Of a stretch of DNA of 64,000 bases, positions 15,324-54,630 are shown in pieces. This stretch comes from an uncultured Bacteroidia bacterium (GTDB lineage: Bacteria > CAIWAD01 > BS150m-G50), in the NCBI GenBank assembly GCA_964517435.1, contig CAZFEC010000001.1, positions 7,518-71,517 on the forward strand, written 5' to 3'. How positions within the stretch are numbered: the first letter of the stretch is position 1; every line of letters begins with the position of its first letter. The notes under the pieces are model-generated. The model did no database searches and was not told where the DNA came from. It worked only from the letters and a program-made list of their open reading frames with translations. Position numbers and translations under genes: made by a program.

Positions 15324-17291
15324 ATGCCTCAGAATCTGATAGAGAAAATAGTTCAGCGTTTCGCCGTGGGTCTGGCGGATGGTCAACTGGTACACAGCGG
15401 CGACTACCTTTCCCTGCGTCCGGCGCATGTGCTGACTCATGACAATACCGGCGCGGTCATCCCGAAGTTCCGCTCCATCGGTGCCGCCCGCATGGCGAAT
15501 CCCCGCCAGCCGGTTTTCGCCCTCGACCACAATGTGCAGGACGACGGTGAAGCCAACCTGGCCAAATACGAACGCATCGCCGCTTTTGCCTCCGAAATGG
15601 GCGTCGATTTTTATCCGGCCGGCCGCGGTATCGGCCACCAGATCATGTGCGAAGAGGGCTACGCCTGGCCCGGCACGATGGTGGTCGCCTCCGACAGCCA
15701 TTCCAACATGTACGGCGGTCTGGGCTGCCTCGGCACGCCTATCGTGCGTACCGACGCCGCGGCGATCTGGGCGACCGGACGCACCTGGTGGCAGATCCCA
15801 CCGGTGGCGCGCGTCAAGTTGCGCGGTCGTCTCACCGGCTGTGCCAGCGGTAAGGATGTGATTCTGGCGCTCTGTGGCCTGTTCAACGAGGACCAGGTGC
15901 TGAACCAGGCGCTGGAGTTCACCGGTGAAGGGCTGGCGGATCTCTCGCTCGAACAACGGCTGACCATCGCCAACATGACGACGGAGTGGGGCACCCTGGC
16001 GGGGATCTTCCCGGTCGACGCGGTGACGCTCAACTGGTTACGGGAACGGATTGAAGCCGTGGCGATGCGTGGTCCGGCGGGCGTTCCTTCCGACGCGGAT
16101 AATCCCGACGCGCATCCCCGGCTGAACCGCCGGCACCTGGAAGAGCTGGCGGCGGATCGTCTGGAGGCGGATCCGGACGCGGTCTACACGCAGGAGCTGG
16201 AGCTGGATCTGGCTTCGGTCCGGCCGCTGGTGGCGGGACCGCACCATGTGAAAACCGTAACACCGGTCGCGGCTTTCAGCGCGGAGCGGGTGAAGATCAA
16301 CAAAGCCTATCTCGTCTCCTGCGTCAACAGTCGGGGAGAGGATATCGTCGCCGCCGCTGACAAGATACGCGGCAAACAGGTTGCGCCCGGTGTCGAATTC
16401 TACATTGCAGCCGCCTCCGACGAAATTCAGGCGGCGGCTGAACTGAGCGGTGACTGGCAGGCCCTGCTGGACGCCGGCGCCATCGCCCTGCCGCCGGGGT
16501 GCGGCCCCTGTATTGGTCTGGGCCGGGGCCTGCTGGGTCCGGACGAAGTCGGTATTTCCGCTACCAACCGCAACTTCAAGGGCCGCATGGGCGATGCTTC
16601 CGCGCTGGCTTACCTGGCCTCGCCGGCTGTAGTGGCGGCTTCCGCCGCCGCCGGTTACATCGACTGTCCGGACGCAGAGAGCGGCGAACCACAGGGTGAG
16701 ATCCGCAGGTTCGAACCGCCCACAGCCGCTGCCGACGCGACGGAGCTGCTGCCGAACTTCCCGGTCAGAATCGATGCCGAGCTGCTTTTCTGTCCGCAGG
16801 ACAACCTCAACACCGACGGGATCTACCCCGGCAAGTATACCTACCAGGACGACATCACCCCGGAGCAACAGGCGGAGGTGGTGATGGAGAACTACGATCC
16901 CGCCTTCGGGCAGACGGTGAAGACCGGCGACATCCTGGTCGGCGGTTTCAACTTCGGTACCGGCAGTTCGCGTGAACAGGCCGCCACGGCCCTCAAGCAT
17001 CGCGGCATCCGTCTTGTAATCGCCGGCTCCTTCAGCGAGACCTACAAACGTAACGCGCTCAATAACGGACTGCTCGTTATCGAAGCGCCGCGGCTGGTGG
17101 CCGACCTGAAGGAACGCTGCGGCGAAGAGCAGCTGACGCTGCGCACCGGTCTGAGCGCGCGGGTCGACTTCCAGCGCGCCCTGATCGAAGTTGAGGAGGA
17201 CGTATACCCCTTCGCGGCGGTAGGCGTGGCGGCGCAGGAGTTGATCCTCCTGGGCGGACTGGAAAACTGGGTGAAAGAAAAACTGGATTGA
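15324..17291 (+). CDS. Aconitase-family Fe-S hydro-lyase with fused large (LeuC-like) and small (LeuD-like swivel) subunits
   Basis: Aconitase-family cluster-ligand motifs VASDSHSNMYGG, SCVNSRGEDI and GCGPCIGLG. The C-terminal LeuD-like swivel domain has GDILVGGFNFGTGSSREQAA. Substrate is not assignable from sequence. Confidence 0.8.
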   Translation: MPQNLIEKIVQRFAVGLADGQLVHSGDYLSLRPAHVLTHDNTGAVIPKFRSIGAARMANPRQPVFALDHNVQDDGEANLAKYERIAAFASEMGVDFYPAGRGIGHQIMCEEGYAWPGTMVVASDSHSNMYGGLGCLGTPIVRTDAAAIWATGRTWWQIPPVARVKLRGRLTGCASGKDVILALCGLFNEDQVLNQALEFTGEGLADLSLEQRLTIANMTTEWGTLAGIFPVDAVTLNWLRERIEAVAMRGPAGVPSDADNPDAHPRLNRRHLEELAADRLEADPDAVYTQELELDLASVRPLVAGPHHVKTVTPVAAFSAERVKINKAYLVSCVNSRGEDIVAAADKIRGKQVAPGVEFYIAAASDEIQAAAELSGDWQALLDAGAIALPPGCGPCIGLGRGLLGPDEVGISATNRNFKGRMGDASALAYLASPAVVAASAAAGYIDCPDAESGEPQGEIRRFEPPTAAADATELLPNFPVRIDAELLFCPQDNLNTDGIYPGKYTYQDDITPEQQAEVVMENYDPAFGQTVKTGDILVGGFNFGTGSSREQAATALKHRGIRLVIAGSFSETYKRNALNNGLLVIEAPRLVADLKERCGEEQLTLRTGLSARVDFQRALIEVEEDVYPFAAVGVAAQELILLGGLENWVKEKLD

Positions 17292-17324
17292 CGATTACAT
17301 CGAATTAACGCAGAGGACTATAGA

Positions 17325-18692
17325 ATGGAAAAGTCGATTTCTAGGAAGATGGCTGAGTTCGCGGTGGCGTTGAAGTATGAAGATCTGCCGTCCGCGGTGG
17401 TTGCAGAGGTCAAGCGTTATCTCTACGATTCCATTGGTTGCGCCTACGGTTCGATGGGCACCAGTGATGTCGGTATCATGCACCGGATTCTGGGGGAGAT
17501 GGGTGGCGCGCCGGAGGCGACCATTATCGGTTTCGGCGATAAATTGCCGGTGGTGAATGCGACGTTGCTGAACTCGCTGATGATCCGCGCCCTCGACTAC
17601 AACGACATCTACTGGAAGGAAGATCCCTCCCATCCCTCCGATATCATTCCGGCAGCGCTCTGCACCGGGGAGAAGGTGGGCGCCGACATGCAGGCGGTCA
17701 TCACTGCGATCGTGCTGGCCTATGAGTTCGAGCAGCGCCTCTGTGAATTCGCCAAGCCGGGCGTCCGGGAGCGCAAATGGCATCACGCCACCCTGACGCA
17801 GTTCGTCTCGCCGCTGGTGGCCGGCAAAATGCTGGGGCTGACAGTCGACCAGCTGGTGAATGCGATCGGCATCAACGGATCGCACAACCACACCATCGGC
17901 TGTCCCACAGCGGGCAAGCTGACCATGATGAAGAACACCGTCGATCCGATGGCGGTGCAGAGCGGGGTTTTCGCCGCCCTGATGGCCCAGCAGGGCTACA
18001 GCGGTACGGAACAGGTCTTCGAGGGCAAAGAGGGATTCATGGATGTCTTCGGACCCGACTGGGACACCAGCCTGCTCACCGAGGGATTGGGGGACGATTA
18101 CCGCATTCTGCAATGCAGCATGAAGGCCTTCCCGACCGAGGCGCTGACGCACACTCACCTGACCGCCACCCTCAAAGTGATCTGCGATCACGACATCGCG
18201 CCGGAGGATATCGAGGAAGTGCGGGTAACGACCATCGCCCGGGCGGTGGACATTCTATTCGATCCCCAGAAGTACCGTCCAGAGTCGCGGGAGACCGCCG
18301 ATCATTCGCTGCCGTACTGCCTGGCGGCGGCTATCGTCGATCGCCAGATCACTACCGCATCCTTCTCCGATGCCAAGCTGAAGGATGAGCGGATCTGGCA
18401 GGTCATCGACCGCATCAAGGGTGAGGCTTCGGTCGAGTTCGAGCAGATGTTCCCCGCCAAGCAGCCCTCGCGGGTGGTGATCCGGACTATGGACGGCGCG
18501 GAGCATGAACAGTATCTCGAGTATCCCAAGGGGGACCCGCGCGAACCGATGACCCTGGAAGACCTGGAGCAGAAGTTCAACGCCCTGGCGGACGAGCACT
18601 TCGATCCTGAACGCCTGCGGCGCCTGAAGGAGACAATCTTCGACTGTGATACGCTGACGGTCGCTGACTTCATGGCAGAGCTGGTTAAATAG
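17325..18692 (+). CDS. MmgE/PrpD-family protein (2-methylcitrate dehydratase / cis-aconitate decarboxylase superfamily)
   Basis: Full-length (455 aa) match to the MmgE/PrpD fold (LYDSIGCAYGS, LDYNDIYW, SDIIPAALCTGEK). It lies 33 nt downstream of the aconitase-family gene on the same strand. Confidence 0.85.
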   Translation: MEKSISRKMAEFAVALKYEDLPSAVVAEVKRYLYDSIGCAYGSMGTSDVGIMHRILGEMGGAPEATIIGFGDKLPVVNATLLNSLMIRALDYNDIYWKEDPSHPSDIIPAALCTGEKVGADMQAVITAIVLAYEFEQRLCEFAKPGVRERKWHHATLTQFVSPLVAGKMLGLTVDQLVNAIGINGSHNHTIGCPTAGKLTMMKNTVDPMAVQSGVFAALMAQQGYSGTEQVFEGKEGFMDVFGPDWDTSLLTEGLGDDYRILQCSMKAFPTEALTHTHLTATLKVICDHDIAPEDIEEVRVTTIARAVDILFDPQKYRPESRETADHSLPYCLAAAIVDRQITTASFSDAKLKDERIWQVIDRIKGEASVEFEQMFPAKQPSRVVIRTMDGAEHEQYLEYPKGDPREPMTLEDLEQKFNALADEHFDPERLRRLKETIFDCDTLTVADFMAELVK

Positions 18693-21298: not shown

Positions 21299-24200
21299 AT
21301 GCGTAAACTCATCACCGGATTCATGATTCTGCTGACCGCCTCTTGGGCTATGGCGCTTAACCCGGGCGACCTGGTCGTCAACGAGATCATGCAGAATCCC
21401 GCCGCCGTCGCTGATTCGGATGGCGAGTGGTTTGAGGTTTACAACGCAACCGAACTAACCGTCAATCTGAATGGATTGGTTTTCACAGAAGATGCCTTCG
21501 GCAATATCTTCACAGTCGGAAGTGATGTTCTTATCGACGCCGGTGGCTATGCATTGCTGGCTCGGAATGCCGATCCGCTGGTAAATGGTGGTCTGCCTAC
21601 CGTCGACTATGTGTATCCCGGTGGTTATTATCTGGGTAACAGCTCTGACGAAGTTATCATCCTGGAGATCGTCGGTATCGATACCACTGTCATCGATGAA
21701 GTCTGGTACGACAACGGCGCCACCTTCCCCGATCCCAACGGCGCCAGCATGGCTTTGCTCAGCGTTGACCTGGACAACAACGTCGGTGCCAACTGGTACG
21801 AGGAATCGACCTTTACCTATGGTGACGGCGACTACGGTACTCCCGGCGCCGCCAACCAGCAGGAAGGTTTCCCGCTCATCACCGATGTTTCGCAGGTTCC
21901 CGGTGCTCCGGGCAGCAGCGATGATGTCGACATCACCGCGACCGTCACCGATCCGGCCACCCGAACGGTAGCCAACGTCGATCTCATCTATGATGTAGAT
22001 GGAGCGCCCGCTGTCATCGTCGACATGACTCCCGCTGGCGATATCTACAGCGGCACCATTCCGGCTCAGATTGCCGGCTCCGTCGTCACCTGGCGCATCG
22101 AAGCCACCGATGATGAGGATAACACCTCCTTCTTCGGACCGGTTGTCTACACCGTGGTGGATGTTCCGCTTTACAGCATCTACGATATCCAGTACTCAAC
22201 CGATCCCGATTACCCATCCCCCTATGAAGGGCAAATGGTACAGGTCACCGGTATCGTGACCGCCATCGGCCTCTCCGGCGACGGCAGCTTCTTCCTGCAG
22301 GATGACGAAGCCCCCTGGTGCGGTATCCAGATTTACGGCAACAACGACGGCGTCGCTATCGACGACTCGGTGACCGTCACAGGTATAGTCGAGGAGTATT
22401 ACACCCAGACCGAGCTGCACATCTACGGTTCGGATGTATTCACCATCCACTCCAGTGGCCACACTCCGGTGGAACCGCTGCTGGTTCCGGTCGGCACCGC
22501 TTACACTGAGCCTTACGAATCGGTACTGGTCCGGGTTGAGAATACCACCTGTGTCAGTCTGCCCGATGGCTACGGCGAGTGGGAAATCAGCGATGGCGTG
22601 GACACTGGTCTTGTCGATGACTGGTTCGTCAGCTTCACCCCGACTCTGGAACAGTGCTACGACATTCAGGGTCTGGTTTACTTCTACTATAACTACAAGA
22701 TCTGCCCACGCGACCTGAGCGAGATCACCATCTGCGGCGGCGGCAATCTGCCACCCACCATCACCGACGTCGCGCATGTACCGTTACTCCCGACCAGCGT
22801 CGATATCGTGACCGTCAGCGCGACGGTTACCGATGATGTCGGCGTCGCCAGTGTGGTGCTGAACTACAGTGTGGGCGGCGGCGGTTACGTACCAGTAGCC
22901 ATGACCCCCGGCATTGACGACCTCTACAGCGGTGACATACCGGCACAGGTTGACGGTTCGCATGTGGACTATTACCTCGTCGCCACCGACACGCCCGATG
23001 GGGATACAACTACCAGCGACATCGGATTCTATGATGTCATCGATGTCTACACCTGCGAAGACATCTCCAACATCCGTGTCGTTGACGTGGACGGCGTGCC
23101 GGTGATGGAAGGTCAAGCGGTGATGGTCTGCGGTGTGCTGACCGTCGCCCATGAATTCGGCTCCAGCGGCCCCGGCTATCTGGTTCATGAAACCGGTTCC
23201 GTAGCTTTCCACGGCGGCGTTTTCGGTGATGATACCAGTTTAATTATTGGCGACGAAGTCGAGGTTATCGGTATCGTCGGCGCTTATAACGGCCTGACCC
23301 AGATCCAGGATCCGCCGGTAGTCAACTTCATCGGCCATGTCGGTCCGCCCACTCCCACTGTCGTCACCCTGGCCACACTCGGTGCCGGCGGTGAAGCCTG
23401 GGAAGCGCAGCTGGTAACGGTAGAAGGTGTTACCCTGGTCGATCCGGAGAACTGGCCGGCTGAAGGGGATTACGCCACCGTGATCCTGCAACAGGGCGTC
23501 GATACTTATGACATGTACATTGACCGCGACACCAATATCGACGGTTCAATTGCGCCTACCGGCACCTTCAATGTAACCGGAGTCATCGGCCAGTACGACA
23601 CGACACTGCCTTGGACTGAAGGCTACAACATCTCTCCGCGTATGCTCGATGACGTCGGCGGCGGCGGCGAGCCTCCGGTCGTGACGATCTACGACATCCA
23701 GTACACCACAGATCCCTCCGGCGATTCACCGCTGGCCGGGCAGATGGTTACCACCAGCGGCATCGTCTACGCCGTCTCAGGCGCCGGTTTCTTCATCCAG
23801 GATGACGACGCCACCTGGTCCGGCATCCAGGTCTTCGGCGCCAACAACCAGATTGTGGTTGGTGATGAGGTCACGGTAACCGGCCAGGTTGTCGAGTACT
23901 ACAACTTCACCGAGCTGACCATCAGTGATTCCACCGCTTACACCATCCTGACGAGCGGCAATCCGCTCTATCCTGTAGCGCTGGGAACGATTCCGGCTAT
24001 CTATGTCGAGGACTACGAAGGTGTGTTCGTCGGTGTCCAGAATGTTACCTGCTCAAACATTGATCTGGGATACGGCGAATGGGAAATCACCGACGGTACC
24101 AACCTGGGTGTTGTCAACGACCTGATGTACGCCTATGTGCCAGTACTGGATGAGTGCTTCGACCTGGTACAGGGTGCTCTCACTTACGGTTTCGGTGCTT

Positions 24201-24454
24201 ACAAGATCGAACCGCGCGAGGCGGGTGATATCGTCAACTGTGCCACGCTGGATGCTCCGGTGGTCACCATCACCTATTCCGGCGGCAGTGCCATCCTCAC
24301 CTGGGATCCGGTCGACGGGGCCACCGACTACCGGGTACATGTCAGCACCGAGCCGTACGGCGGCTGGGATGCCGGCACTCTCACCGGCGGTCTGACCACC
24401 TACACCTACCCGTCAACAGGTATGTACTTCTTCCATGTTGTAGCGTTGAACTAG
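21299..24454 (+). CDS. Large secreted/surface protein with an N-terminal lamin-tail domain (LTD), three ExeM/NucH-N-terminal-like beta modules, two Ig-like modules and a C-terminal FN3-like domain
   Basis: Signal peptide MRKLITGFMILLTASWAMA; LTD signature LVVNEIMQNPAAVADSDGEWFEVYN. Internal repeats IYDIQY(S/T)TDP...GQMV...GIV...FF(L/I)QDD occur at ~22170-22640 and ~23680-24140, with a divergent third copy at ~23030-23640. The module pair (P(L/T)ITDV...TVTD...YSG(T/D)IPAQ(I/V)) is duplicated at ~21875-22130 and ~22750-23010. C-terminus is DYRVHVSTEPYGGW...FFHVVALN. No nuclease catalytic domain detected. Confidence 0.75.
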   Translation: MRKLITGFMILLTASWAMALNPGDLVVNEIMQNPAAVADSDGEWFEVYNATELTVNLNGLVFTEDAFGNIFTVGSDVLIDAGGYALLARNADPLVNGGLPTVDYVYPGGYYLGNSSDEVIILEIVGIDTTVIDEVWYDNGATFPDPNGASMALLSVDLDNNVGANWYEESTFTYGDGDYGTPGAANQQEGFPLITDVSQVPGAPGSSDDVDITATVTDPATRTVANVDLIYDVDGAPAVIVDMTPAGDIYSGTIPAQIAGSVVTWRIEATDDEDNTSFFGPVVYTVVDVPLYSIYDIQYSTDPDYPSPYEGQMVQVTGIVTAIGLSGDGSFFLQDDEAPWCGIQIYGNNDGVAIDDSVTVTGIVEEYYTQTELHIYGSDVFTIHSSGHTPVEPLLVPVGTAYTEPYESVLVRVENTTCVSLPDGYGEWEISDGVDTGLVDDWFVSFTPTLEQCYDIQGLVYFYYNYKICPRDLSEITICGGGNLPPTITDVAHVPLLPTSVDIVTVSATVTDDVGVASVVLNYSVGGGGYVPVAMTPGIDDLYSGDIPAQVDGSHVDYYLVATDTPDGDTTTSDIGFYDVIDVYTCEDISNIRVVDVDGVPVMEGQAVMVCGVLTVAHEFGSSGPGYLVHETGSVAFHGGVFGDDTSLIIGDEVEVIGIVGAYNGLTQIQDPPVVNFIGHVGPPTPTVVTLATLGAGGEAWEAQLVTVEGVTLVDPENWPAEGDYATVILQQGVDTYDMYIDRDTNIDGSIAPTGTFNVTGVIGQYDTTLPWTEGYNISPRMLDDVGGGGEPPVVTIYDIQYTTDPSGDSPLAGQMVTTSGIVYAVSGAGFFIQDDDATWSGIQVFGANNQIVVGDEVTVTGQVVEYYNFTELTISDSTAYTILTSGNPLYPVALGTIPAIYVEDYEGVFVGVQNVTCSNIDLGYGEWEITDGTNLGVVNDLMYAYVPVLDECFDLVQGALTYGFGAYKIEPREAGDIVNCATLDAPVVTITYSGGSAILTWDPVDGATDYRVHVSTEPYGGWDAGTLTGGLTTYTYPSTGMYFFHVVALN

Positions 24455-24477
24455 TTTCAGACTGCGACATTAACGAT

Positions 24478-24513
24478 AAAGGGCGGTCCCCCTTGCGGGA
24501 TCGCCCTTTTCTT
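24478..24513 (+). terminator. Rho-independent terminator after the LTD gene
   Basis: AAAGGGCGgtcccccttgcgggatCGCCCTTTTCTT: a GC-rich hairpin followed by a T-run, 24 nt after the stop codon. Confidence 0.5.
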
Positions 24514-24682
24514 ACGCCGGGTGCAATTACCGCGGATACAGTGGACGGATTAGTATGAATATTGCAAAAACCTCAATTCAACGAGACCTGATTCATCATT
24601 ATATTATTATATGACAAATTCTTTTCACTTTAAGCACTTCACTTTTATCAGATAGGGCTACTCCAGGATCGGAAGTGTTCAG

Positions 24683-26776
24683 TTGCTGCCCATTCGCTTC
24701 ACACGGATCCTTACCACGCTTTACTCGCTGCTACTGGCGTCGATGTTGTTCCTGCCGGAACTGTCGACGGCATTTGACGCCCACCGTGAGGGAGAGATGG
24801 TTCTTGAATACCGTTACCGTTTCAACTGCCAGAACCACGTCCCTGACCATCTGCTCGGCGTGATCGCGGTCAGCGGCAACCGGCTGGTGATCAGCGGGAA
24901 TCAGGGTTTAGCTTTGGTGGATCACTCCCTGCTGACCCCGGCCGGAACCGACATCGCCCTCTCCCGGCTCCTGGGTCTGAACGCCCGCGAGGTCTACCTC
25001 TACCAGCAGAACTATCTATTCGTCAATCTCAACGGCACCGGTGTGAATCCCGAAGCCGGTTTCGCTGTGGTCAGGATCGATGGGGACAACCTGACTCCGG
25101 TGACCATCGTCAGCTCCACCGCGGTGTTTTTCGAGAAGATGGCAATCGCGGGTAACTACTTGTACGTGGCCGCGCACAGCGGTGGTTTCCATGTCTATAG
25201 TATCTCCAATCCCGAAGCACCCTACTTTCGCGCTTCGATCCCGACCGGTTTTGTGAACGCCTATGCGGTCGCGGTCGCGGGTGATACCGCCTATGTCGCT
25301 GACGGCGGCGGCGGCTTGAAAGTAGTCGATATCTCGAATCCGCTATCGCCGCTTTTGGTTGGCGGCGAAACACTGGCTACAGCTGTCGGAACAGCGGAGG
25401 ATGTCACCTGTCGGAACGGGAAGGTCTTCCTGGCGGCGGGGGCGTCCGGTGTGGCGGTTTTCGACGGCGCCGATCTGGCCAGCCGGAGGCTGATCGAAGT
25501 CGGCGGTGCGGCGCGCTCTTTCAGCTGGGTGGGAGATCACCTGGCGGTCTCCACCATTCACGGTATCGCCATTCTGGGCGAGGTCGGTGGTGAGTATCAG
25601 CTGGTGGCGAGTGAGATCACCGGACGGCGTGGTCATAATGCCCGTCTGCGTCTGTGCGGCGCCATCGGCACTGCGGGTGACAGCCTGGTGCTCTGCGCCG
25701 ACTGGAACTGCATGGACGTCTATGAACTGATGGAGTTCAACACCGGCAGTCAACCCGACATCAGTTGCGACCGGCAGCGGATTCGTTTTCATCCTGATGG
25801 CGAATCAGTCACGGCCACCGTCTGGAACAATGGCGCCGGGGATCTTCACATCACCGCCGTCAATGTCAATCCACCTTCCTTCAGCAGCGATTTCACGCCG
25901 GTCACATTGCAGCCGGGTGAGAGTCTGGGATTTCAGATCAGTTATAACGGTTCCGCCCAGCAGGACAGCGGTCTGGTACGGATCATGTCCGACGATCCGG
26001 ACGAAAGTCCGTTTCCGATCCAGATCTTCGGCGAGACAGGATACCTGAATCCAGGGGACCAGGCACTCGACTTCACACTGCCGCTCTATACCCGTGATCA
26101 CGGGACCGGGACCTACAGCTGGGAGCCGTTCACCCTTTCAGAGCAGCTGGGAAAAGTGATCTGGTTCCAGGCCTACGGGAGCTGGTGACCTGCCTGCACA
26201 CCCGCGGTCGCGGATATGCAGAACAGCATTGTCAAGGAATTCACAGGCAACCCGCAGGTGCGGCTGGCACTTTTGAATCCAGGTGACAGCCATAGCGAGA
26301 CCCTGGCCTGGACGCAGCACTTCTGGGACAATAACTATTTACGGGGGAGTTTTCTCTACGACAACGACGGCAGCGTTGACTCGTTGTACGAGCAACCCGC
26401 CACCGGCCTGCCTTTCGGGCGCGGTTTCATCATCGACCAGCAGGGTAATGTCGATCTGCCGTTTTTCGGTCACAACCCGCAGATGGTGATCGCGCGGATC
26501 TATGAACTGTTGGAGGACTCACCTCCGACCGCTCCGCAAAACCTCGCCGCGTTTGTAACCGGCGCGGACCTGGAGCTGATGTGGAGCCCGGTCACCGCCG
26601 ATGTCTGGGGTAATCCGATGACGGTCAACCATTACCGCGTGTATCGCGGCCAGGAGCCGTATTTCACTTGTGATGGTGAGCACCTGCTGGGGGAGACCGC
26701 TGACTGCTTTTATACAGTCGCTGGAGCGATGAGTCAGCCCGGTGGCTTCTTCAAGGTAACCGCAGGTTACCCGTAA
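24683..26776 (+). CDS. Candidate selenoprotein: secreted LVIVD-repeat beta-propeller fused to a TlpA/redoxin-like thiol:disulfide oxidoreductase domain (U-x-x-C) and an FN3-like domain; in-frame TGA (Sec?) at 26186..26188
   Basis: Track ORFs 24683..26188 and 26216..26776 share one frame, separated only by the TGA. The redoxin fold spans the TGA: ...GDQALDFTLPLY...LGKVIWFQAYGSW-[TGA]-PACTPAV...GLPFGRGFIIDQQGNV. The TGA therefore replaces the first Cys of W-C-x-x-C. The N-terminus has a signal-peptide-like helix and LVIVD-like propeller repeats (YVAAHSGGFHVYSISNPEAP, AYVADGGGGLKVVDISNPLSP). Confidence 0.55.
26194..26221 (+). promoter_or_regulatory. SECIS-like mRNA hairpin immediately downstream of the in-frame UGA
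   Basis: CUGCA-ca-CCGC-GGUC-GCGG-aua-UGCAG: a 5-bp lower stem, an internal loop, a 4-bp upper stem and a GGUC apical loop. The upper helix starts 13 nt 3' of the UGA, comparable to the ~11-nt spacing and G/U-containing apical loop of the E. coli fdhF bacterial SECIS. Confidence 0.4.
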
Positions 26777-26830
26777 TCGCAGGTTACCCGTAATCGCAGG
26801 TTACCCGTAATCGCAGGTTACCCGTAATCG
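26761..26830 (+). repeat. Tandem 17-bp direct repeat (cgcaggttacccgtaat, 4 copies) spanning the stop codon, followed by a hairpin
   Basis: Four perfect head-to-tail copies starting at 26761, 26778, 26795 and 26812. The unit is not a multiple of 3 and carries TAA in shifting frames. Each copy has the palindrome-related GGTTACC, and the preceding GGTAACC can pair with it. A hairpin AGTCTCAgcgctgagTGAGACT follows at ~26833..26854. Confidence 0.8.
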
Positions 26831-26894
26831 CCAGTCTCAGCGCTGAGTGAGACTACCGCGTTCGTATGTGTCGGATCCTGATTCAACCTCGGGA

Positions 26895-27916
26895 TCAGGT
26901 AATCCCGAGGTACTTCCGCAGGCTTTCTATCTGGACGTCGGTGCCCAGTACTACCATCTGATCGCCCGTTTCGAGCAGCGTCCTCGCGTTAGCCACCTCC
27001 AGCTGGTCCGCCGCCTGCTTGCGACCGACATGATGAGGATCCCGTCGGTACGCTTGCGGATGTCGGTGTCATGCAGCTGCTTGTCGACGCAGGGGGCGTC
27101 GGGCGGTATTTCAACTTGCACCATGCGGTAGTCGGTCTCGCCGCGGGTGACGAAGGTGTCCAGGAAGTCGGCGACGGCCGGCTGCAGCATCATGGCCGCC
27201 ATGCGGCGCCCGCCGATCAGCGATGGCGAGATCACCTTGTCGGCGCCGGCCTGCTGCAGCTTCTTGTCGGCATGCGGTTCGATTCCCTTGGTGATGATAT
27301 TGAGAGTGGGATTCATTTCACGCGCGGTCAGCACTACGTAGAGGTTGGCCGCATCGCTGTCGAGAGTCGTCAGCAATCCCTGCGCGTGTTCTATGCCGCT
27401 GCGCCACAGGGTCTCCTCATGGGTGACGTCCGCTTCGATCACCAGCAGATCGCCGGCGCGAGCCTCCTCGCACCGTGCCGCGTTCTTCTCGATGATGACG
27501 ATATCGAGGTTGGCACTGGTGAAGGAGCGAGCCAGTTCGGCGCCGACATGGCCGTATCCGCAGATGATATAGTGTTCCCGCAGTTTGCTGATCAGAGTGT
27601 CCATTTTTCTGCCTCGCAAGAAATCCTGAATAACACCGGAGGTGATGGCGGCGGTCAGGGTGGAAAGGATGAACCCCGCCAGACCGACACCGGCCAGAAC
27701 ATAGAAAATCGTGAAATACTGACCCGCGACGCTGAGTTCGTGAACTTCGCCGAAACCGACGGTGGTCAGAGCGATAACCGACATGTAGAACGCATCGAGC
27801 GGACTCTACCCCTCCAGCAGCATGTAGCCGCTGGCGCCGATTCCGATCAGCACCAGCAGCATCGCGGGCAGCGCCAGTAGGCGCGGGCGGGAAATCGAAT
27901 GCGTTTTAAGTATCAT
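26895..27916 (-). pseudogene. RCK/TrkA-domain potassium channel gene, apparently inactivated (in-frame TAG at a conserved Trp plus a probable 3' frameshift)
   Basis: Minus-strand translation from ATG 27916 gives MILKTHSISRPRLLALPAMLLVLIGIGASGYMLLEG-[TAG at 27808..27806]-SPLDAFYMSVIALTTVGFGE (selectivity filter), then a TrkA-N Rossmann motif (IICGYGHVG). K+ channels have EGW-S..DA.Y at this point, so TGG to TAG is inferred. The track ORF 26951..27784 ends in non-protein-like sequence (ASRRRTSWRWLTRGRCSKRAIRW). A +1 frame continues with a typical TrkA-C ending (ANARTLLETGDQMVVLGTDVQIESLRKYLGIT) to a TGA at 26897..26895. Confidence 0.5.
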
Positions 27917-37567: not shown

Positions 37568-39388
37568 ATGGACATTCCACTCAAACAACAACTGCGTGAA
37601 GCTCTGGCGCAGGTCATACAGAATACACTGGCGGTGGAGATCAGTGTCTCCGCTATCAAGTTCGACCGCCCGCCCGAGACGGTCGAGGGCGATCTGGCTT
37701 TTGCCTGCTTCCCTCTGGCCAAACTGGCCCGCAAGGCTCCCCAGCAGATTGCGGCGGAGCTGGCACCACAATGTGGTACATTACCAGGTATCGCCGCCGC
37801 CGCCGCTGCCGGCGGCTATCTCAACCTCACTCTGCAGACAAGTCACTGGTTCGCCGCCGCGGTGCGGCACCTGTTGACCGAGGAGCAACCGGAGCGCGCT
37901 ACGACGGCGCCGCAGAGAATCGTCATCGAATACTCCTCGCCCAACACCAACAAGCCGCAGCACCTGGGGCATGTCCGCAACAATGTCCTGGGTGAGTCCC
38001 TCGCGGCGCTGCTGGCAGCCTGCGGCCACGAGGTCAAGCGGGTGAATCTGATCAACGATCGCGGAATTCACATCTGCCGTTCGATGCTGGCCTGGCAGAA
38101 GCTGGGCGACGGTGAAACCCCCGCCGGCAGCGATGAGAAGGGCGATCACCTGGTCGGACGTTATTACGTCGCTTTCAGCCGTGAGCTCGAACGCGAGCGG
38201 CAAGCCTACCTGGAGGCAAAGAACCTGGTACCGGCTGAGCTGAGCGAGGAGGAAACGGCCACGGTGGAAAAGGAATTCCTCGCCCAGTCCACCTGGCAAC
38301 AGGCAGCCGTGCAGATGCTGCAGCGCTGGGAGCAGGGCGACAGCGACGTCCGCGAACTGTGGCAGACCATGAACGACTGGGTCTATGCCGGTTTCGAGGA
38401 GACCTATGCCCGCTACGGAATCGAGTTCGATCGCCTCTACTATGAGAGCGATACTTACCTGCTGGGGCGCAGCGTGATCGAGCAGGCGCTGGCGGATGGC
38501 CTGGTGGAGCGGCGGCAGGATGGTTCCGTCTGGATCTCCCTGCCGGAGGCGGAGCTGGAGGACAAGCTGCTGCTGCGCAGTAACGGCACTTCCGTTTACA
38601 TTACCCAGGATGTGGGCACCGCCCTGCAGCGTTACGACGATTACAGTTTCGACCGCCAGCTCTACATCGTCGGCAACGAACAGCGTTACCATTTCCGCGT
38701 ACTCTTCGCCATTCTCAAGCAGCTGGGACACACCTGGGCGGACAACCTGGAACATGTCGCCTATGGTATGGTCAACCTGCCGCAGGGCAAACTGAAGAGC
38801 AGGGAGGGCACCGCCGTCGATGCCGACGACCTTCTGAACACGGTCAAAGCGGCTGCCCGGCGGGTTATGACCGAGTCTGAACGCCGCCAGGATTTCAGCG
38901 AACAGGAAATGGACGAGGTGTCGGAACAGCTGGCACTGGGCGCCATCAAGTATTACCTGCTGCGGGTGTCCGCCGTCCAGGATCTCCTCTACGATCCGGA
39001 GCAGTCGGTGGATCTGAACGGCACCACCGGACCGTATCTGCAGTACGCGCACGCCCGCATGGCTTCGCTCCTGCGCAAATCCGCCTATACCTGCAGTGAG
39101 ACGCTGGAGTTTACTCTCGAAAGTGACGTGGAACGGGAGCTGCTGCTGAAGCTGCTGGAATACAGCGACAGCGTCAGGCAGGCGGCGGAATCACGCAATC
39201 CCTCCCGTCTGGCGCAATACCTTTACGAACTTTCCCGCGGCTTCAATCGCTTCTGGCACGATCATCCCATCCTGCAGGCTGAAAGCGCAACGGTACGCGA
39301 TCAGCGTCTGGCCTTGACGGCTGCATGCCGGCGCGTCCTGCAGCGGGGACTGGGTCTGCTCGGTATTCCCACCCCGGAGCGCATCTGA
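37568..39388 (+). CDS. argS: Arginine--tRNA ligase
   Basis: Class-I HIGH-type motif (SPNTNKPQHLGHVRNNVLGES), Arg-tRNA-synthetase N-terminal additional domain and C-terminal DALR anticodon-binding domain; 606 aa. Confidence 0.9.
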   Translation: MDIPLKQQLREALAQVIQNTLAVEISVSAIKFDRPPETVEGDLAFACFPLAKLARKAPQQIAAELAPQCGTLPGIAAAAAAGGYLNLTLQTSHWFAAAVRHLLTEEQPERATTAPQRIVIEYSSPNTNKPQHLGHVRNNVLGESLAALLAACGHEVKRVNLINDRGIHICRSMLAWQKLGDGETPAGSDEKGDHLVGRYYVAFSRELERERQAYLEAKNLVPAELSEEETATVEKEFLAQSTWQQAAVQMLQRWEQGDSDVRELWQTMNDWVYAGFEETYARYGIEFDRLYYESDTYLLGRSVIEQALADGLVERRQDGSVWISLPEAELEDKLLLRSNGTSVYITQDVGTALQRYDDYSFDRQLYIVGNEQRYHFRVLFAILKQLGHTWADNLEHVAYGMVNLPQGKLKSREGTAVDADDLLNTVKAAARRVMTESERRQDFSEQEMDEVSEQLALGAIKYYLLRVSAVQDLLYDPEQSVDLNGTTGPYLQYAHARMASLLRKSAYTCSETLEFTLESDVERELLLKLLEYSDSVRQAAESRNPSRLAQYLYELSRGFNRFWHDHPILQAESATVRDQRLALTAACRRVLQRGLGLLGIPTPERI

Positions 39389-39399
39389 ACGGAGTAGTC

Positions 39400-40269
39400 A
39401 TGCTGACCATCCGCCTGCTCCTGCTGTTGTTCCTCGCCTGCCGGGCACAAGCCGCGGCACCGGTTGTAGTGGTTGTCAGCGTGCCGCCGCAAGCCTGGCT
39501 GGTTGAGCAGCTCGCCGGCGACCTGGTGCGGGTTGCGACCATGGTCCCGTCGGGGAACTCTCCCGCCACCTGGGATCTGATTCCGAGTCAGCGCCGCGAT
39601 CTGGACCGGGCCACCCTCTACTTCCGGATCGGCCATCCCGCTTTTCTGCTGGAATCCCGCCAGATCGATCCCCATCTGGCAGTACATCCGGAAATACGCG
39701 TCGTCGATCTTTTCCAACCGGCGGTCGCCGCCGCTCACCGCAGCGACCCGGGGGCGGAACTCGATCCACATGTCTGGATGAGCCCGGCGCTCATGCGCGC
39801 TTCACTGGTTCCGTTGACCGCCGGTCTGGCCGCGCTGCTGCCAGAGCAGGTAGAGCTGCTGCAGAGTAATCAGCGCCGTCTGGAACAGGCGGTGGACTCG
39901 CTCGATCTGGAACTGCGCACAAAGCTCGCCCCGCTGGAACAGCGCACATTCATGGTGCAGCATCCCGCCTGGGGCTGGTTCGCGAGCGAATACGGTCTGC
40001 GGCAGATCGCGCTGGAACACGAGGGCAAGGATCATTCGCCGGCACACCTGGTCGAGCTGATCGAGCTGGCCCGGGAAATCCGGCCGCGGGCGGTGTTCGT
40101 TCAACGCGGGTTTTCACAGCGCGCGGCGCTGACTCTGGCGCAGGAGACAGGCGCCGCCGTCATCGAACTCGATCCGCTGGCGGCGGACTGGCTGACGAAC
40201 ATGTATCACCTCGCCGAGCGGCTGCGGACCGCCCTGATGCCTTTACCTGTCGAGCAGGGGAGACCTTGA
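39400..40269 (+). CDS. Metal (Zn/Mn) ABC transporter substrate-binding protein, ZnuA/TroA family
   Basis: Signal peptide MLTIRLLLLLFLACRAQAAAP. Cluster-9 SBP pattern (VVVSVPPQAWLVEQLAGDLVRVATMVPSGNSPATWD; DPHVWMSP). Confidence 0.8.
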   Translation: MLTIRLLLLLFLACRAQAAAPVVVVVSVPPQAWLVEQLAGDLVRVATMVPSGNSPATWDLIPSQRRDLDRATLYFRIGHPAFLLESRQIDPHLAVHPEIRVVDLFQPAVAAAHRSDPGAELDPHVWMSPALMRASLVPLTAGLAALLPEQVELLQSNQRRLEQAVDSLDLELRTKLAPLEQRTFMVQHPAWGWFASEYGLRQIALEHEGKDHSPAHLVELIELAREIRPRAVFVQRGFSQRAALTLAQETGAAVIELDPLAADWLTNMYHLAERLRTALMPLPVEQGRP

Positions 40270-40270
40270 C

Positions 40271-41047
40271 ATGACTGATGCCGCACCGGTGCTGGAAGTT
40301 CGCGATGTCTCCTTCGCCTACGGCGACACACCGGTGTTGAGCGAGGTCAACCTCACTATCCGCCAGCGGGATCACCTGGTGATCCTGGGACCGAACGGCG
40401 GCGGCAAAACGACGCTGGCCCGTCTGATCCTTGGCCTGCTCACACCGGATCGCGGCACGATCGTGTACCTGCAGCCGGAGTTGCGTCACCGCATCGGTTA
40501 TGTTCCCCAGCACAGCGCATTCGAACAGTGGTTTCCACTGCGGGTGCGGGAAGTGGTGCGGATGGGACGGTTGGCGCAACGGGGCATCCTGCGGCCGTTC
40601 CGTCGGGAGGACAACAGACTGACGGATCGCATGCTGGAATCGCTCCAGATCACCGACCTGGCCGCGCTGCCGGTAGGCTCGCTCTCCGGCGGGCAACTGC
40701 AACGGGTCCTGATCGCGCGCGCCCTGATCGCGGAACCGGCGCTGCTGATTCTGGACGAACCCACCGCCTCCATCGACGCGGAATCGCGGACGCAACTGCG
40801 GGAGCTGCTGTCGGAACTCAACCGCCGCATTCCGATCGTCATGATCACGCACGACATGACGGCAGTCGCCGCCGACGTGCGCAGCATCGCCTGCGTCAAC
40901 CGCCGGCTCTATTACCACCGGGCGGGCGAACTCAGCAGTGAGACGATCAGCCGCGTCTACGGCTGTCCCGTCGATCTGCTCGCTCACGGTGTGCCGCACC
41001 GGGTGCTGGGAGACCACGAGCATCCGGGGGAGGATCGGGATGAGTGA
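40271..41047 (+). CDS. Metal ABC transporter ATP-binding protein (ZnuC-like)
   Basis: Walker A GPNGGGKTT, signature LSGGQLQRVLIARAL, Walker B LLILDEP. Confidence 0.85.
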   Translation: MTDAAPVLEVRDVSFAYGDTPVLSEVNLTIRQRDHLVILGPNGGGKTTLARLILGLLTPDRGTIVYLQPELRHRIGYVPQHSAFEQWFPLRVREVVRMGRLAQRGILRPFRREDNRLTDRMLESLQITDLAALPVGSLSGGQLQRVLIARALIAEPALLILDEPTASIDAESRTQLRELLSELNRRIPIVMITHDMTAVAADVRSIACVNRRLYYHRAGELSSETISRVYGCPVDLLAHGVPHRVLGDHEHPGEDRDE

Positions 41048-41870
41048 ACTGTTCGGATTCGAGTTCATGCGCAACGCGCTGCTCAGCGGTTTACTCGCCA
41101 GCGTGCTCTGCGGACTCCTCGGAACCTTTCTGGTGGTAAGACGCCTGGTCTTCATCAGCGGCGGGATCAGCCACTCCGCTTTCGGCGGGCTGGGCCTGTT
41201 CTACTTCCTGGGATACAATCCGCTGCTGGGCGGAGTGATCGCAGCTGTAGCGTCGGCACTGCTGCTGGCCGGCATCCCCGCTTCCCGGCGCTACTCCACC
41301 GACGCCTTCATTGGCGTACTCTGGGCGGGGGGCATGGCGCTCGGCATCCTCTGCGTGGCGCTCACACCGGGTTACGCACCCAACCTGCTGGGTTATCTCT
41401 TCGGCAGCATTCTCACGGTCACCACCGGCGATCTCGGACTGACCGCTGTAATAACCGGTGCCGTTCTACTCTTCCTGCTGCTCTTCTACAAGGAGCTGCT
41501 CGCCCTGGCGCTGGACGAAGAGTTTGCCCGGGTGCAGGGAGTGCCCGCCGGCAGTCTCCAGGCTCTACTGCTGGTTCTGACCGCCCTGGCGGTGGTGACC
41601 CTGATCCAGGTCGTCGGGGTCATCCTGGTCATCGCGCTGTTCACGATACCGCCCTTGATCGCGTTACGTCTGAGTCACCGTTTCAGCCTCATCCTCATCT
41701 ACTCCATCCTGACCGGTATGGTAATGACCAGCGGGGGATTGCTCCTCTCCTACTATCTGGATCTACCATCCGGGCCGGCGATCATACTCCTGGGCACTCT
41801 CCTGCTGTTGGTCGTCATCGGAGGCGACAGGCTGCGTATAATCCGTGCCCGGAGCGGCAATCTTGATTGA
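41040..41870 (+). CDS. Metal ABC transporter permease (ZnuB-like)
   Basis: ABC-3 family permease with 8-9 TM helices. Start-coupled to the ATPase gene (ATG at 41040 overlaps its stop). Confidence 0.8.
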   Translation: MSELFGFEFMRNALLSGLLASVLCGLLGTFLVVRRLVFISGGISHSAFGGLGLFYFLGYNPLLGGVIAAVASALLLAGIPASRRYSTDAFIGVLWAGGMALGILCVALTPGYAPNLLGYLFGSILTVTTGDLGLTAVITGAVLLFLLLFYKELLALALDEEFARVQGVPAGSLQALLLVLTALAVVTLIQVVGVILVIALFTIPPLIALRLSHRFSLILIYSILTGMVMTSGGLLLSYYLDLPSGPAIILLGTLLLLVVIGGDRLRIIRARSGNLD

Positions 41871-42474
41871 GTACCTGCCCCCGGTCAGTTCCGACGGCAA
41901 GCGGGTGTTGCTGCTGGACAACTACGATTCCTTCACCTTCAATATCGTGCAGGCGCTGCTGCGGCTTGGAGCCGCGGTGGTGGTGTATCGCCACGATGCG
42001 GTGCCATTGGAACTCACCGGCCGCGGCTTTACCCATCTGGTGATTTCACCCGGGCCCTGCCGGCCGGAGGATACCGGTCTCGCCGGTGAGCTGGTGCGGC
42101 GCTGGGCGGGCAGGCTGCCGCTGCTGGGCGTCTGTCTCGGACATCAGCTCCTGGCGACGCTCTGGAATGGCCGGGTAGGGCGGGTGACACCGGTACACGG
42201 CAAATGCGACACGGTCCGCCATTTCGGTCGGGGCTGGCATCGCGAACTGCCGGAGCGTTTCCCCGCGGCGCGTTATCACTCGCTGGCGGTGCTTGAAACG
42301 GGAGCGGAATTCGAGATCACCGCCCTCAATGACGAAGGTTTAATCATGGGAATGCGCCACCGCCGTCTCGCTGCGCTGGAGGGCGTGCAATACCACCCGG
42401 AATCTTTCCTGACACCGAGCGGTGAACAGTTCTTCCGCAATTTTCTCGACGCGAAGATCGAGGCGGAACGATGA
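41845..42474 (+). CDS. pabA: Glutamine amidotransferase component of aminodeoxychorismate/anthranilate synthase (PabA/TrpG)
   Basis: Class-I GATase (LLLDNYDSFTFNIVQ; catalytic Cys in GVCLGHQLL; H/E in the YHPES region). Start uncertain; an in-frame GTG at ~41905 is an alternative. Confidence 0.8.
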   Translation: MPGAAILIEYLPPVSSDGKRVLLLDNYDSFTFNIVQALLRLGAAVVVYRHDAVPLELTGRGFTHLVISPGPCRPEDTGLAGELVRRWAGRLPLLGVCLGHQLLATLWNGRVGRVTPVHGKCDTVRHFGRGWHRELPERFPAARYHSLAVLETGAEFEITALNDEGLIMGMRHRRLAALEGVQYHPESFLTPSGEQFFRNFLDAKIEAER

Positions 42475-51385: not shown

Positions 51386-52489
51386 TCACAATGTATCACG
51401 AATATGCAGATAGCTGCGATAGCGCTGCGCGGTCAGCGTCCCCGCTTCGACCGCTGCTTTGACAGCGCAATCCGGCTCCGCCAGATGCTGGCAACTGCTG
51501 AAGCGGCAGTCTCCCGCCCGGGCGACGAACTCCGGGAAGTAGTCGCGCAATTCCCGGGGATCTATGTTCCACAGCTCGAACAGATTCAGCCCTGGCGTGT
51601 CCACCAGATAGCCCTGATCGCGGTAGGGCAGCAGGATGGCCCGGGTGGTCGTGTGTCGCCCCTTGCGGGAGGAGCTGATGATGGCTCCCACCTTGAGGTC
51701 GAGCGAAGGATCCAGCCGGTTGGCCAGCGATGATTTACCGACGCCGCTCTGACCGGCCAGCACGGTCAGTTTCTCCCGCAGGAGCTGGTCCAGCTCCGCC
51801 AGTCCCTGACCGGTCTCGGCGCTGGTCAGTAATACCCGGAACCCGGCGGCTTGATAGACTTCCTGCAACGGTTCCCCGGTACCGGCGTCCAGGTCGATCT
51901 TGTTGATGCAGAGGACCGCCGGCAGGCTCTGAACAGCGGCGGCGATCAGCACCCGGTCGAGGAACTCCGGCTTGGGACGGGGATCAGCGCAACTGGTCAC
52001 CAGCAACAGCTGGTCGACGTTGGCCACTAGCACCTGCTCGATGTCGGGATGCAGGCGGGAGGCACGGCTCAGACGCAACCCGCGCGGGTGGATTTCGGTG
52101 ATGACGCCTTCGCCCGACGGCGCCAGCTGGATATCCACCCGGTCGCCGACAGCGAGCGGTGTTGAATCGTTGGAGTTGATCCGCGTGGTGGAGCGCAACC
52201 GGCAGATGTGATCCTTTCCATCGCTGTTCACCCGCACCGTCCGTCCCATGTATTCCACGACCCGGCCCATCTGAGCCTGGCCGGTCAGTTCCGGCTGCGA
52301 CGACTGGTCCGATACCGTGCGCTGCATCTCTTCGGCGATGTCGTCGGCGATCTCTTCCAGGTCTTCGCCCCGGCGGTCGGTCGACTGCAGCGCCCGGGTG
52401 CGCGCAGCCTCCCGGCGGGCATCGCGCTTATCCCATTCCTGGCGTTGCTGGCGGCGGCGACGTTTGCCGGTGCGCAATTGACGTGGCAT
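51386..52489 (-). CDS. rsgA: Ribosome small-subunit-dependent GTPase A
   Basis: Circularly permuted GTPase motifs (NKIDL; GQSGVGKSSLAN) and a C-terminal Zn-finger (CRFSSCQHLAEPDCAV). An Arg/Lys-rich N-terminal extension is present. Confidence 0.85.
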   Translation of the reverse strand: MPRQLRTGKRRRRQQRQEWDKRDARREAARTRALQSTDRRGEDLEEIADDIAEEMQRTVSDQSSQPELTGQAQMGRVVEYMGRTVRVNSDGKDHICRLRSTTRINSNDSTPLAVGDRVDIQLAPSGEGVITEIHPRGLRLSRASRLHPDIEQVLVANVDQLLLVTSCADPRPKPEFLDRVLIAAAVQSLPAVLCINKIDLDAGTGEPLQEVYQAAGFRVLLTSAETGQGLAELDQLLREKLTVLAGQSGVGKSSLANRLDPSLDLKVGAIISSSRKGRHTTTRAILLPYRDQGYLVDTPGLNLFELWNIDPRELRDYFPEFVARAGDCRFSSCQHLAEPDCAVKAAVEAGTLTAQRYRSYLHIRDTL

Positions 52490-52492
52490 CGC

Positions 52493-53833: not shown

Positions 53834-54630
53834 GCCTGCTGCACTCTCAGGGTCGGGGTGATGTCGCCGGCCTCCAGCAACAGGGCCGTGAGGTAGGTGC
53901 GCAGCTGCTCGCCGTCGCTGACCGGTACGAAGTCGCCGGCCAGCGCCAGGGTGATGTGACCGGTTTCCTCCGAGACGATGACCGTCACCGCGTCGGATTC
54001 CTCCGAAACACCGAGACCGGCGCGATGACGCGTGCCGCAGATGGTTTCGAACTGCGGATTGCTGGAGATGGGCAGGGTGCACTTCGCCGCCACGATCCGG
54101 TTGCGTTCGATGATGACGGCTCCGTCATGCAGGGGAGTACGGGGAAAGAAGAGCGAGACCAGCAGCGGCGCTTTGACCGCCGCATCGATTCGAATACCGG
54201 TTTCGGTGATCATCTTAAGGCCGACCTCGCGGCAGATCACGATCAGGCCGCCATACTGGCGCCGGGCGAGTTCCTCTGCCGCGGCGGCCACTTCCTCGAT
54301 CGGATCAGCCTCCGAGATGTTGAAGAAACGCCGGAAGATGTTCGTCTGTCCGAGTTGAATCAGGAAGCGCCTCAGTTCCGGGTGGAAGATGATGATCAGC
54401 GCGATCACCCAGATGGCGGCGAAATTCTGGAAGATCACCGACATGACAGAGAGGTTGAAGATGCGGACCAGGAAGGAGAGCACCAGCAGCAGCACCAATC
54501 CCGTGATCATGGCGGATGCCCGTGTACCGCGCACCAGTCTCAACAGCTGGTAATAGAGCGCGCCGACCAGCAGTACGTCGAGCAGATCCCAGATGGTGAA
54601 GGGGATGAAACCGACATGGAACAGTGTCAT
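53830..54630 (-). CDS. cdaA: Diadenylate cyclase (c-di-AMP synthase) CdaA
   Basis: Three N-terminal TM helices and a DAC domain with conserved motifs (LHDGAVIIERNRIVAAKCTLP; GTRHRAGLGVSEESDAVTVIVSEETG). Confidence 0.85.
   Translation of the reverse strand: MTLFHVGFIPFTIWDLLDVLLVGALYYQLLRLVRGTRASAMITGLVLLLVLSFLVRIFNLSVMSVIFQNFAAIWVIALIIIFHPELRRFLIQLGQTNIFRRFFNISEADPIEEVAAAAEELARRQYGGLIVICREVGLKMITETGIRIDAAVKAPLLVSLFFPRTPLHDGAVIIERNRIVAAKCTLPISSNPQFETICGTRHRAGLGVSEESDAVTVIVSEETGHITLALAGDFVPVSDGEQLRTYLTALLLEAGDITPTLRVQQA

Follow-up and report, generated by a model that had tools for sequence, protein, structure and literature searches.

A predicted bacterial selenocysteine insertion sequence within the coding region of a thioredoxin-fold selenoprotein gene

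Introduction

Does an in-frame UGA codon in the genome of an uncultured Bacteroidia bacterium end a gene, or is it read as selenocysteine (Sec) with the help of a hairpin that follows it in the mRNA? The question is raised by a 64-kb stretch of contig CAZFEC010000001.1, hereafter the window, by which we mean all 64,000 nucleotides (nt) analysed and in which all positions below are counted. Two open reading frames (ORFs), 24683..26188 and 26216..26776, share one frame in the window, and the first of them ends at the UGA at 26186-26188. An earlier interpretation made from the letters only (the sequence-only reading) had proposed that a two-helix stem-loop directly downstream of this UGA is a bacterial Sec insertion sequence (SECIS), and that it favours Sec decoding over termination.

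The analysis described here leads us to conclude that 26194-26221, with its core at 26200-26215, is very probably a bacterial SECIS embedded in the coding sequence for a thioredoxin-fold selenoprotein. Directly observed are the fold and position of the hairpin, the occurrence of Sec and Cys homolog pairs, the conservation of the reading frame across the UGA, and selection at the RNA level that is specific to TGA-carrying genes.

Results and Discussion

The UGA occupies a catalytic Cys position in a conserved thioredoxin-fold domain

When translated through the UGA, the gene encodes a signal-peptide-like N-terminus, an LVIVD repeat (beta-propeller), an Ig-like domain, an AhpC/TSA (TlpA-like) thioredoxin fold and, over about 100 amino acids at the C-terminus, a domain without family assignment, in that order. 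The exact start is uncertain and was taken as the TTG at 24683. A Pfam scan of the read-through protein, made with U replaced by C, matched LVIVD (3.6e-17), Ig-like (6.5e-4) and AhpC-TSA (4.9e-08), the last (PF00578) scoring 33.4 bits and thus above the cut-off of 26. Matches in NCBIfam were weak and confined to ResA and choice-of-anchor domains, and no selenoprotein-specific NCBIfam model matched the read-through protein. The translated peptide around the UGA is ...QAYGSW-U-PACTPAVADMQNSIVKEF.... Sequence matches of the redox domain in the PDB are to extracytoplasmic 'thioredoxin family proteins' (4EVM, 4HQS and 2YP6; TlpA/Etrx-like), and in the alignment with 4EVM, a TlpA-like thioredoxin of solved structure, the U of YGSWUPAC falls on the first Cys of WCSIC (FWASWCSIC).

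In public gene calls, the UGA divides the gene into ORFs of 501 and 186 amino acids. The same truncation is widespread: in a database of 5.8 billion proteins, at least 51 protein clusters of ~480-530 amino acids stop exactly at the Trp preceding the UGA, and six clusters of ~700 amino acids continue with Cys. Truncated orthologs carry the NCBI label 'hypothetical protein' (P0017, P0025). The Cys proteins P0008, P0010, P0014, P0022, P0045 and P0047 are full length with the same domain order, the last domain being a type IX secretion system (T9SS) sorting domain or a dockerin; one Cys homolog is named 'thiol-disulfide isomerase/thioredoxin' by JGI.

Scans of genomes and metagenome contigs gave 158 loci, and in 77 of these the tblastn alignment (27-74% identity) spans the codon in question, which is TGA in 64, TGC in 7 and TGT in 6. 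In most orthologs the reading frame is kept for ~180 amino acids beyond this codon. According to the labels of the metagenome-assembled genomes (MAGs), the TGA forms occur in Bacteroidia, Thermodesulfobacteriota, Acidobacteriota, Fibrobacterota, Eisenbacteria, Cloacimonadota, Planctomycetota and Gemmatimonadota; Sec and Cys forms are both present in Phycisphaerae. An identical TGA and hairpin are found on contigs from two other JGI samples, and the window is syntenic with one ortholog-bearing contig (L001) over six neighbouring genes at 47-86% amino-acid identity.

A hairpin with a GGUC loop follows the UGA

The sequence 26186-26226 is UGA CCU GCC UGC ACA CCC GCG GUC GCG GAU AUG CAG AAC AG, and the features discussed below are collected in Table 1. 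Every coordinate and base of the hairpin given in the sequence-only reading proved correct, including the frame of the UGA and the GGUC loop at 26206-26209. Its claim of a stable fold was likewise borne out by formal folding of the single sequence with ViennaRNA, in which z-scores were obtained from shuffles. A 39-nt segment folds at -13.5 kcal/mol (z -2.0; 8 of 200 shuffles equally stable), the described hairpin being both the minimum free energy (MFE) structure and the centroid, and a 41-nt segment folds at -14.2 kcal/mol (z -2.6; 1 of 200 shuffles equally stable). The hairpin begins 6 nt and its upper helix 13 nt past the UGA, leaving a spacing of 17 nt between the UGA and the loop (26189-26205). 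The two helices are separated by a 3x3 internal loop that can be closed by an A-U or G-C pair at 26200/26215.

Table 1. Features of the predicted selenoprotein gene and of the hairpin downstream of its UGA (window positions).
Feature	Position	Strand	Remarks
Selenoprotein gene, read through the in-frame UGA	24683..26776	+	697 codons
AhpC/TSA (TlpA/ResA-like) thioredoxin-fold domain, holds the Sec codon and SECIS	26051..26452	+	PF00578, residues 457-590
In-frame UGA, predicted Sec codon	26186..26188	+	falls on the first, nucleophilic Cys of WCxxC (redox motif)
Lower helix, 5' arm CUGCA	26194..26198	+	shares bases with the second-Cys codon (UxxC); in the MFE fold
Conserved SECIS core A CCGC GGUC GCGG A U	26200..26215	+	suppressed synonymous variation; covers codon +4 (third base only) through codon +9
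Upper helix, 5' arm CCGC	26202..26205	+	pairs with 26210-26213 in MFE and centroid
Apical tetraloop GGUC	26206..26209	+	SelB presumably contacts G26207 and U26208
Upper helix, 3' arm GCGG	26210..26213	+	pairs with 26202-26205 in MFE and centroid
Lower helix, 3' arm UGCAG	26217..26221	+	within Met-Gln codons; in the MFE fold

Selection on the RNA is specific to TGA-carrying genes

The decisive evidence is comparative. We compared 55 distinct Sec-form sequences, drawn from at least 8 phyla and with a G+C content at third codon positions (GC3) of 0.37-0.93, to 12 Cys forms. In the Sec forms, third-position entropy at codons +5 to +8 (CCC GCG GTC GCG) is 0.23 bits. Comparable four-fold sites nearby in the alignment have 1.3-1.8 bits, and the Cys forms have 1.4-2.0 bits at these four codons (1.9-2.0 bits where the codon is four-fold). 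The synonymous sites of these four codons are frozen in 53 of the 55 Sec forms, among which amino-acid identity falls to ~36%. With each gene's own codon usage, the string GCG-GTC-GCG would be expected in 3.1 of the sequences; it is observed in 52. Genes with a GC3 of 0.37-0.42 also keep the pairing, either with the GC-rich core (L084, L006, L093) or in a compensatory variant (L014, L092). Selection at the level of the RNA is thus, on this comparison of sequences, specific to the genes that carry the TGA.

Pairs were counted in 54 distinct 48-mers from TGA-carrying orthologs of the main clade, with positions numbered from the U of UGA. As the sequence-only reading had anticipated for orthologs that keep the TGA, the hairpin is retained: all four pairs of the upper helix are standard in 54 of 54, and G22 and U23 of the loop (26207 and 26208) are invariant, the loop being GGUC in 52 and AGUU in 2. 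The two exceptions are the lowest-GC genes, L014 and L092, in which the pair 26203/26212 is U-A in place of the C-G of the other 52 and the loop shifts from GGUC to AGUU with its GU retained. At 26200/26215 the pair is G-C in 45 sequences and G-U in 5; three sequences, those of the window, L001 and L084, have A-U. In the true register 87% of cells are paired, compared with 16-44% when the register is slid by 1-3 columns, and the observed covariation score was reached by none of 500 shuffles. In the Cys forms, the pair 18-27 is unpaired in 7 of 12, and only the count of two-sided changes stands out from shuffles (38 of 500).

Applied to the window, a covariance model of the 54 Sec-form elements recovered the element alone, with a second-best match of 14 bits. 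Over 76 loci it found no extra copies and gave 52-77 bits to Sec forms and 23-40 bits to Cys forms. The highest of the Cys-form scores, 40 bits, belongs to a TGT-carrying locus in the Phycisphaerales MAG HKST-UBA08 (L035, 1628-1675) that has a nearly intact SECIS-like hairpin, CCGU-GGUG-GCGG. Its sequence has the look of a 'fossil' SECIS that survives from a recent conversion of Sec to Cys.

A divergent subfamily with the motif W-U-P-V-C, whose members include Calditrichota, Marinimicrobia and Fidelibacterota MAGs, has a different hairpin at the same register, UCCGG-AGUUK-UCGGA, in five distinct sequences. Its stem is 5-7 bp long, the loop contains G21 and U22, and at one pair G-U is replaced by C-G. 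Here, in a small sample, the aligned sequences point to a structure that is kept without its sequence, which is the form of conservation for which the sequence-only reading had proposed a test.

The selected core excludes the lower helix

The sequence-only reading described an element of two helices. Both are found exactly where it placed them, and only the upper one is demonstrably part of the selected signal. The lower helix pairs the codon of the second Cys with the Met-Gln codons; its pairs 10-35 and 11-34 are fixed by the Cys and Gln codons, and the helix is equally present in Cys forms. It is absent from the RNAalifold consensus, which consists of the upper helix and the tetraloop only. 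In Sec forms with UxxT or UxxS motifs the lower helix is destroyed. Since the upper hairpin of these U-P-Y-T and U-P-A-S orthologs is intact, the lower helix appears to be dispensable. On this evidence we rejected it as part of the selected signal; the alignments suggest that it is largely a by-product of the conserved Cys and Met-Gln codons, and auxiliary at best, and they confine the selected core to 26200-26215.

The same orthologs, namely L031, L091 and L100 (U-P-Y-T) and L017 and L097 (U-P-A-S), are Sec forms that lack the second (resolving) Cys of the redox motif, which hints at a different catalytic cycle.

Comparison with known SECIS elements and selenoproteins

A summary of the bacterial SECIS consensus model (bSECISearch; Zhang and Gladyshev, 2005) is given in Fig. 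2A of PMC13188914. In this model the loop measures 3-9 nt and the upper stem 4-16 bp, one or both of the first two loop bases are G (usually G and then G or U), the distance from UGA to loop is 16-37 nt and the MFE is at most -7.5 kcal/mol. The stem-loop described here lies inside an ORF directly 3' of an in-frame UGA, and its loop of 4 nt, stem of 4 bp, GGUC sequence, spacing of 17 nt and energy of -13.5 to -14.2 kcal/mol fall within these limits. The position, size and loop sequence therefore agree, as the sequence-only reading had it, with all sequence-testable constraints that the figure gives. The agreement alone proves little because the model is permissive: a simplified version with contiguous stems only is passed by 7.5% of the TGAs in the window. 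For this reason the published constraints were rejected as a stand-alone test.

The likeness to the fdhF SECIS of E. coli, which had also been proposed, is close. The fdhF sequence used for the comparison was found unchanged (100% identity) in 5419 E. coli genomes. Both elements lie in a coding region directly 3' of the UGA, and both combine a short G+C upper helix with a GGUC tetraloop. With the U of UGA as +1, the fdhF loop spans +22 to +25 and the loop described here +21 to +24, which is 1 nt closer, and the exposed G and U of an fdhF-type element, at about +23/+24, are found here at +22/+23. The loop G and U are the determinants of SelB recognition in fdhF, and these are the bases that are invariant in the Sec-form orthologs. 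The minimal fdhF element is reported to lie 11 nt from the UGA, and the upper helix here starts 13 nt past it. The elements differ in the layout of the upper and lower helices, which are separated by the 3x3 internal loop in the gene described here, and the host gene of fdhF, encoding formate dehydrogenase H, is unrelated.

As for the protein, a published selenoproteome table lists two families with UxxC motifs that are comparable, a Prx-like thiol:disulfide oxidoreductase (PF00578) and a thiol-disulfide isomerase-like/TlpA-like family (cd02966) (PMC13188914). These share with the protein described here the Sec at the first position of CxxC, the PF00578 thioredoxin fold and the existence of Cys homologs, a likeness at the level of domain and motif to families whose reference proteins are WP_010940744.1 and MGB1650493.1. 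The difference lies in the architecture: here the redox domain would be the third module of an exported protein of ~700 amino acids, preceded by the LVIVD beta-propeller and Ig-like domains and followed by an extra C-terminal domain. In the literature library that was searched, no paper connects LVIVD with a selenoprotein or selenocysteine, and the main text of BSepDB does not mention an LVIVD selenoprotein fusion.

Weighing the evidence

Several observations weigh against a SECIS. The window contains no tRNA gene and hence no tRNA-Sec; Pfam scans of the 40 other candidate genes found no selA, selB or selD; and neither a second selenoprotein nor a second copy of the element is present in the 64 kb. 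No Rfam family matched the window at gathering thresholds, and a search of 26150-26280 with E up to 10 returned only a chance snoRNA match of 8.8 bits. The upper stem has the minimum length that the consensus model allows in the figure cited above. The upper 4-bp hairpin by itself reaches -5.0 kcal/mol, which would miss the energy cut of the simplified model, and in a context of 65 nt the centroid is unchanged and z is only -0.83. The fdhF SECIS has a bulged U in its upper helix, a determinant of SelB binding in E. coli, and this U has no counterpart in the four contiguous pairs found here. Because most positions of the helix are invariant, few changes are truly compensatory, roughly one at 26203/26212 and roughly two at 26200/26215. 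Finally, the fold of the single sequence is only modestly better than that of shuffled sequences and not compelling alone. Both strands of the window hold 2065 TGA triplets, 64 of which precede a hairpin that has a stem of 4 bp or more and GU in the loop at +20 to +25, and 9 of these 64 also fold at -13 kcal/mol or below; this is why the single-sequence signal is modest. The 8 TGAs other than the one described here that have such a stable hairpin are out of frame with every gene. Conservation among the aligned orthologs lifts the hairpin far above chance.

The SECIS reading also has to be set against other accounts of the same sequence. The hairpin could be a by-product of a conserved Pro-Ala-Val-Ala-Asp peptide and a preference for G+C-rich codons, with no function of the RNA. 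Codons for Ala-X-Ala (GCN NNN GCN) are indeed partly self-complementary, standard pairs fill 74% of the cells of this structure even in Cys forms, which need no SECIS, and this view does account for the lower helix. Such codon preference does not produce the excess of GCG-GTC-GCG over the expectation from each gene's own usage, nor does it fit the Ala codon two positions past the UGA, which in the same genes is mostly GCC (34 of 48), or the pairing in genes of low GC3. Moreover, the peptide is not the same in the two groups and differs exactly at this point: Sec forms have PAVAD after the redox motif whereas most Cys forms have SAEAD, so that the loop codon is Val (GUC) in the former and mostly Glu (GAA) in the latter. 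We consider a mere by-product very improbable. Equally improbable in our view is that the UGA is a true stop, with separate genes of 501 and 186 amino acids and a hairpin that serves coupling, attenuation or mRNA stability. Automated calls do give two ORFs, an ATG lies 27 nt past the UGA, and more genes in the window stop at TGA than at either other stop codon. The split would, on the other hand, cut a single thioredoxin-fold domain inside its WCxxC motif; the 9 codons between UGA and ATG are conserved as in-frame protein; the ATG is replaced by Ile, Leu, Thr or Ala in ~25% of orthologs; and 13 orthologs are continuous, with Cys at this codon.

Readthrough that does not involve Sec, in which the hairpin would stimulate a near-cognate tRNA (Trp or Cys) or some other recoding independent of SelB, receives a slightly higher but still very low probability, seeing that insertion of Sec is deduced and that the Sec machinery was not found within the window. 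A catalytic Cys position in a redox motif with Cys homologs is, however, a hallmark of Sec and not of leaky stops, and the invariant GU of the loop, the spacing and the loop sequence all match the SelB-dependent fdhF element. In addition, a tRNA-Sec gene adjoins one of the orthologs. On contig Ga0187893_10002640 (L094) it occupies 2357-2451 on the strand of the ortholog, ~550 nt upstream of that gene and next to an HNH endonuclease gene; ARAGORN assigns it the anticodon TCA, and it scores 66 bits against Rfam RF01852, for which the threshold is 47. An error of sequencing or assembly, or a pseudogene, has nothing to recommend it apart from the interrupted ORF. The recurrence of the same TGA on contigs from two other JGI samples and in the 64 orthologous loci from many MAGs and metagenomes, together with the conserved downstream frame, makes this explanation negligible. 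A global reassignment of TGA was rejected as well: 24 of the 42 genes in the window stop at TGA, which is thus an ordinary stop codon here. The SECIS reading, then, is the one we retain, and the proposal that the hairpin speaks for Sec decoding over termination is upheld by the pairs of Sec and Cys homologs and by RNA-level selection restricted to TGA-carrying genes.

Proposed decoding of the UGA and its consequences

As a SECIS, the element is genuine but ordinary and conventional, and it leaves the understanding of Sec decoding as it was. The following steps are carried over from the established bacterial pathway, as summarised in section 4 of PMC13188914, and SelB binding, Sec insertion and the geometry on the ribosome are deduced by analogy with it. 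In the mRNA, the 4-bp G+C helix CCGC/GCGG would present the GGUC tetraloop 17 nt downstream of the UGA. SelB, with GTP and Sec-tRNA(Sec), would bind the loop (G26207 and U26208) and the backbone of the helix through its C-terminal domain. With the UGA in the A site, the lower helix would already be unwound and the upper hairpin would sit at the mRNA entrance, where the tethered SelB could deliver Sec-tRNA(Sec) in competition with release factor 2. Sec would then be inserted as the attacking residue of the U-P-A-C redox motif, after which the ribosome would melt the hairpin and translate it into Pro-Ala-Val-Ala-Asp, with which the helix after the redox motif begins. Because the hairpin is itself translated, the RNA signal would dictate codons and amino acids at this place. 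The locus would thus be a textbook case of an RNA structure that constrains a protein, in which the Sec forms are frozen and their Cys-form relatives drift freely.

The N-terminus resembles a signal peptide in the translation, and the last domain of Cys homologs is a T9SS sorting domain or a dockerin, which makes export of the protein probable. Family resemblances suggest that it may act as an extracytoplasmic thiol-disulfide oxidoreductase. The interest of the locus lies mainly in the correction of annotation and in an unusually clean conservation across phyla. At present this gene and at least 50 orthologous clusters are cut at the UGA, and the SECIS would restore a protein of ~700 amino acids with a predicted Sec as its catalytic residue. 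In at least 8 phyla, the 16-nt core hardly departs from its consensus, A/G-CCGCGGUCGCGG-A-Y. With its fdhF-like loop, this near-invariant core is a candidate for a heterologous, broadly recognised SelB ligand.

A broader proposal, to which we give somewhat less than an even chance, is that these genes represent an undescribed, widespread family of exported multidomain selenoproteins (LVIVD, Ig-like and TlpA-like with Sec), truncated at the UGA in annotation and sharing the essentially invariant SECIS core over at least 8 phyla. If so, the conservation would imply either a near-universal SelB-binding hairpin, i.e. a portable SECIS, or repeated horizontal gene transfer, and Cys-form relatives would retain decaying 'fossil' hairpins as a record of conversions from Sec to Cys.

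Genomic surroundings

Upstream of the selenoprotein gene, just past a Lamin-tail-domain gene (21299-24454, 1051 amino acids), a G+C hairpin followed by a T-run (AAAGGGCGGTCCCCCTTGCGGGATCGCCCTTTTCTT) was noticed by eye at 24470-24515, and an A+T-rich stretch lies between it and the selenoprotein gene. From this arrangement, the selenoprotein gene is probably its own transcription unit. A scan for terminators and promoters around the gene gave nothing above the shuffled expectation.

At the other end of the gene, a 17-nt tandem repeat, GTAATCGCAGGTTACCC, extends over 26756-26831 in 4.5 copies (98% matches, TRF score 145). It starts in the last six codons of the selenoprotein and crosses the TAA stop (26774-76) into intergenic DNA; its period is not a multiple of 3. 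Further on, at 26886-26911, a perfect 10-bp hairpin, CCUCGGGAUC ... GAUCCCGAGG (MFE -21.5 kcal/mol, z -2.6), lies between the selenoprotein gene and a convergent TrkA-N/ion-channel gene (26951-27784, minus strand). This hairpin is probably a transcription terminator, although it shows no distinct U-run and escaped a simple terminator scan.

Two other places in the window have adjacent genes in the same frame that are split by a TGA, namely aconitase and PrpD/MmgE (15324-18692, plus strand) and an Atg22-like MFS gene and RsgA (51386-54082, minus strand). At neither TGA does a SECIS-like hairpin pass -13 kcal/mol, and the partners are complete standard proteins, so these same-frame pairs are probably a coincidence. 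The strand assignment is ambiguous at 39300-41900, where a minus-strand ORF (40160-41155, 331 amino acids, no Pfam match) overlaps plus-strand ORFs (39325-40269, 40271-41047 and 40938-41870) that lead into GATase/chorismate-binding genes.

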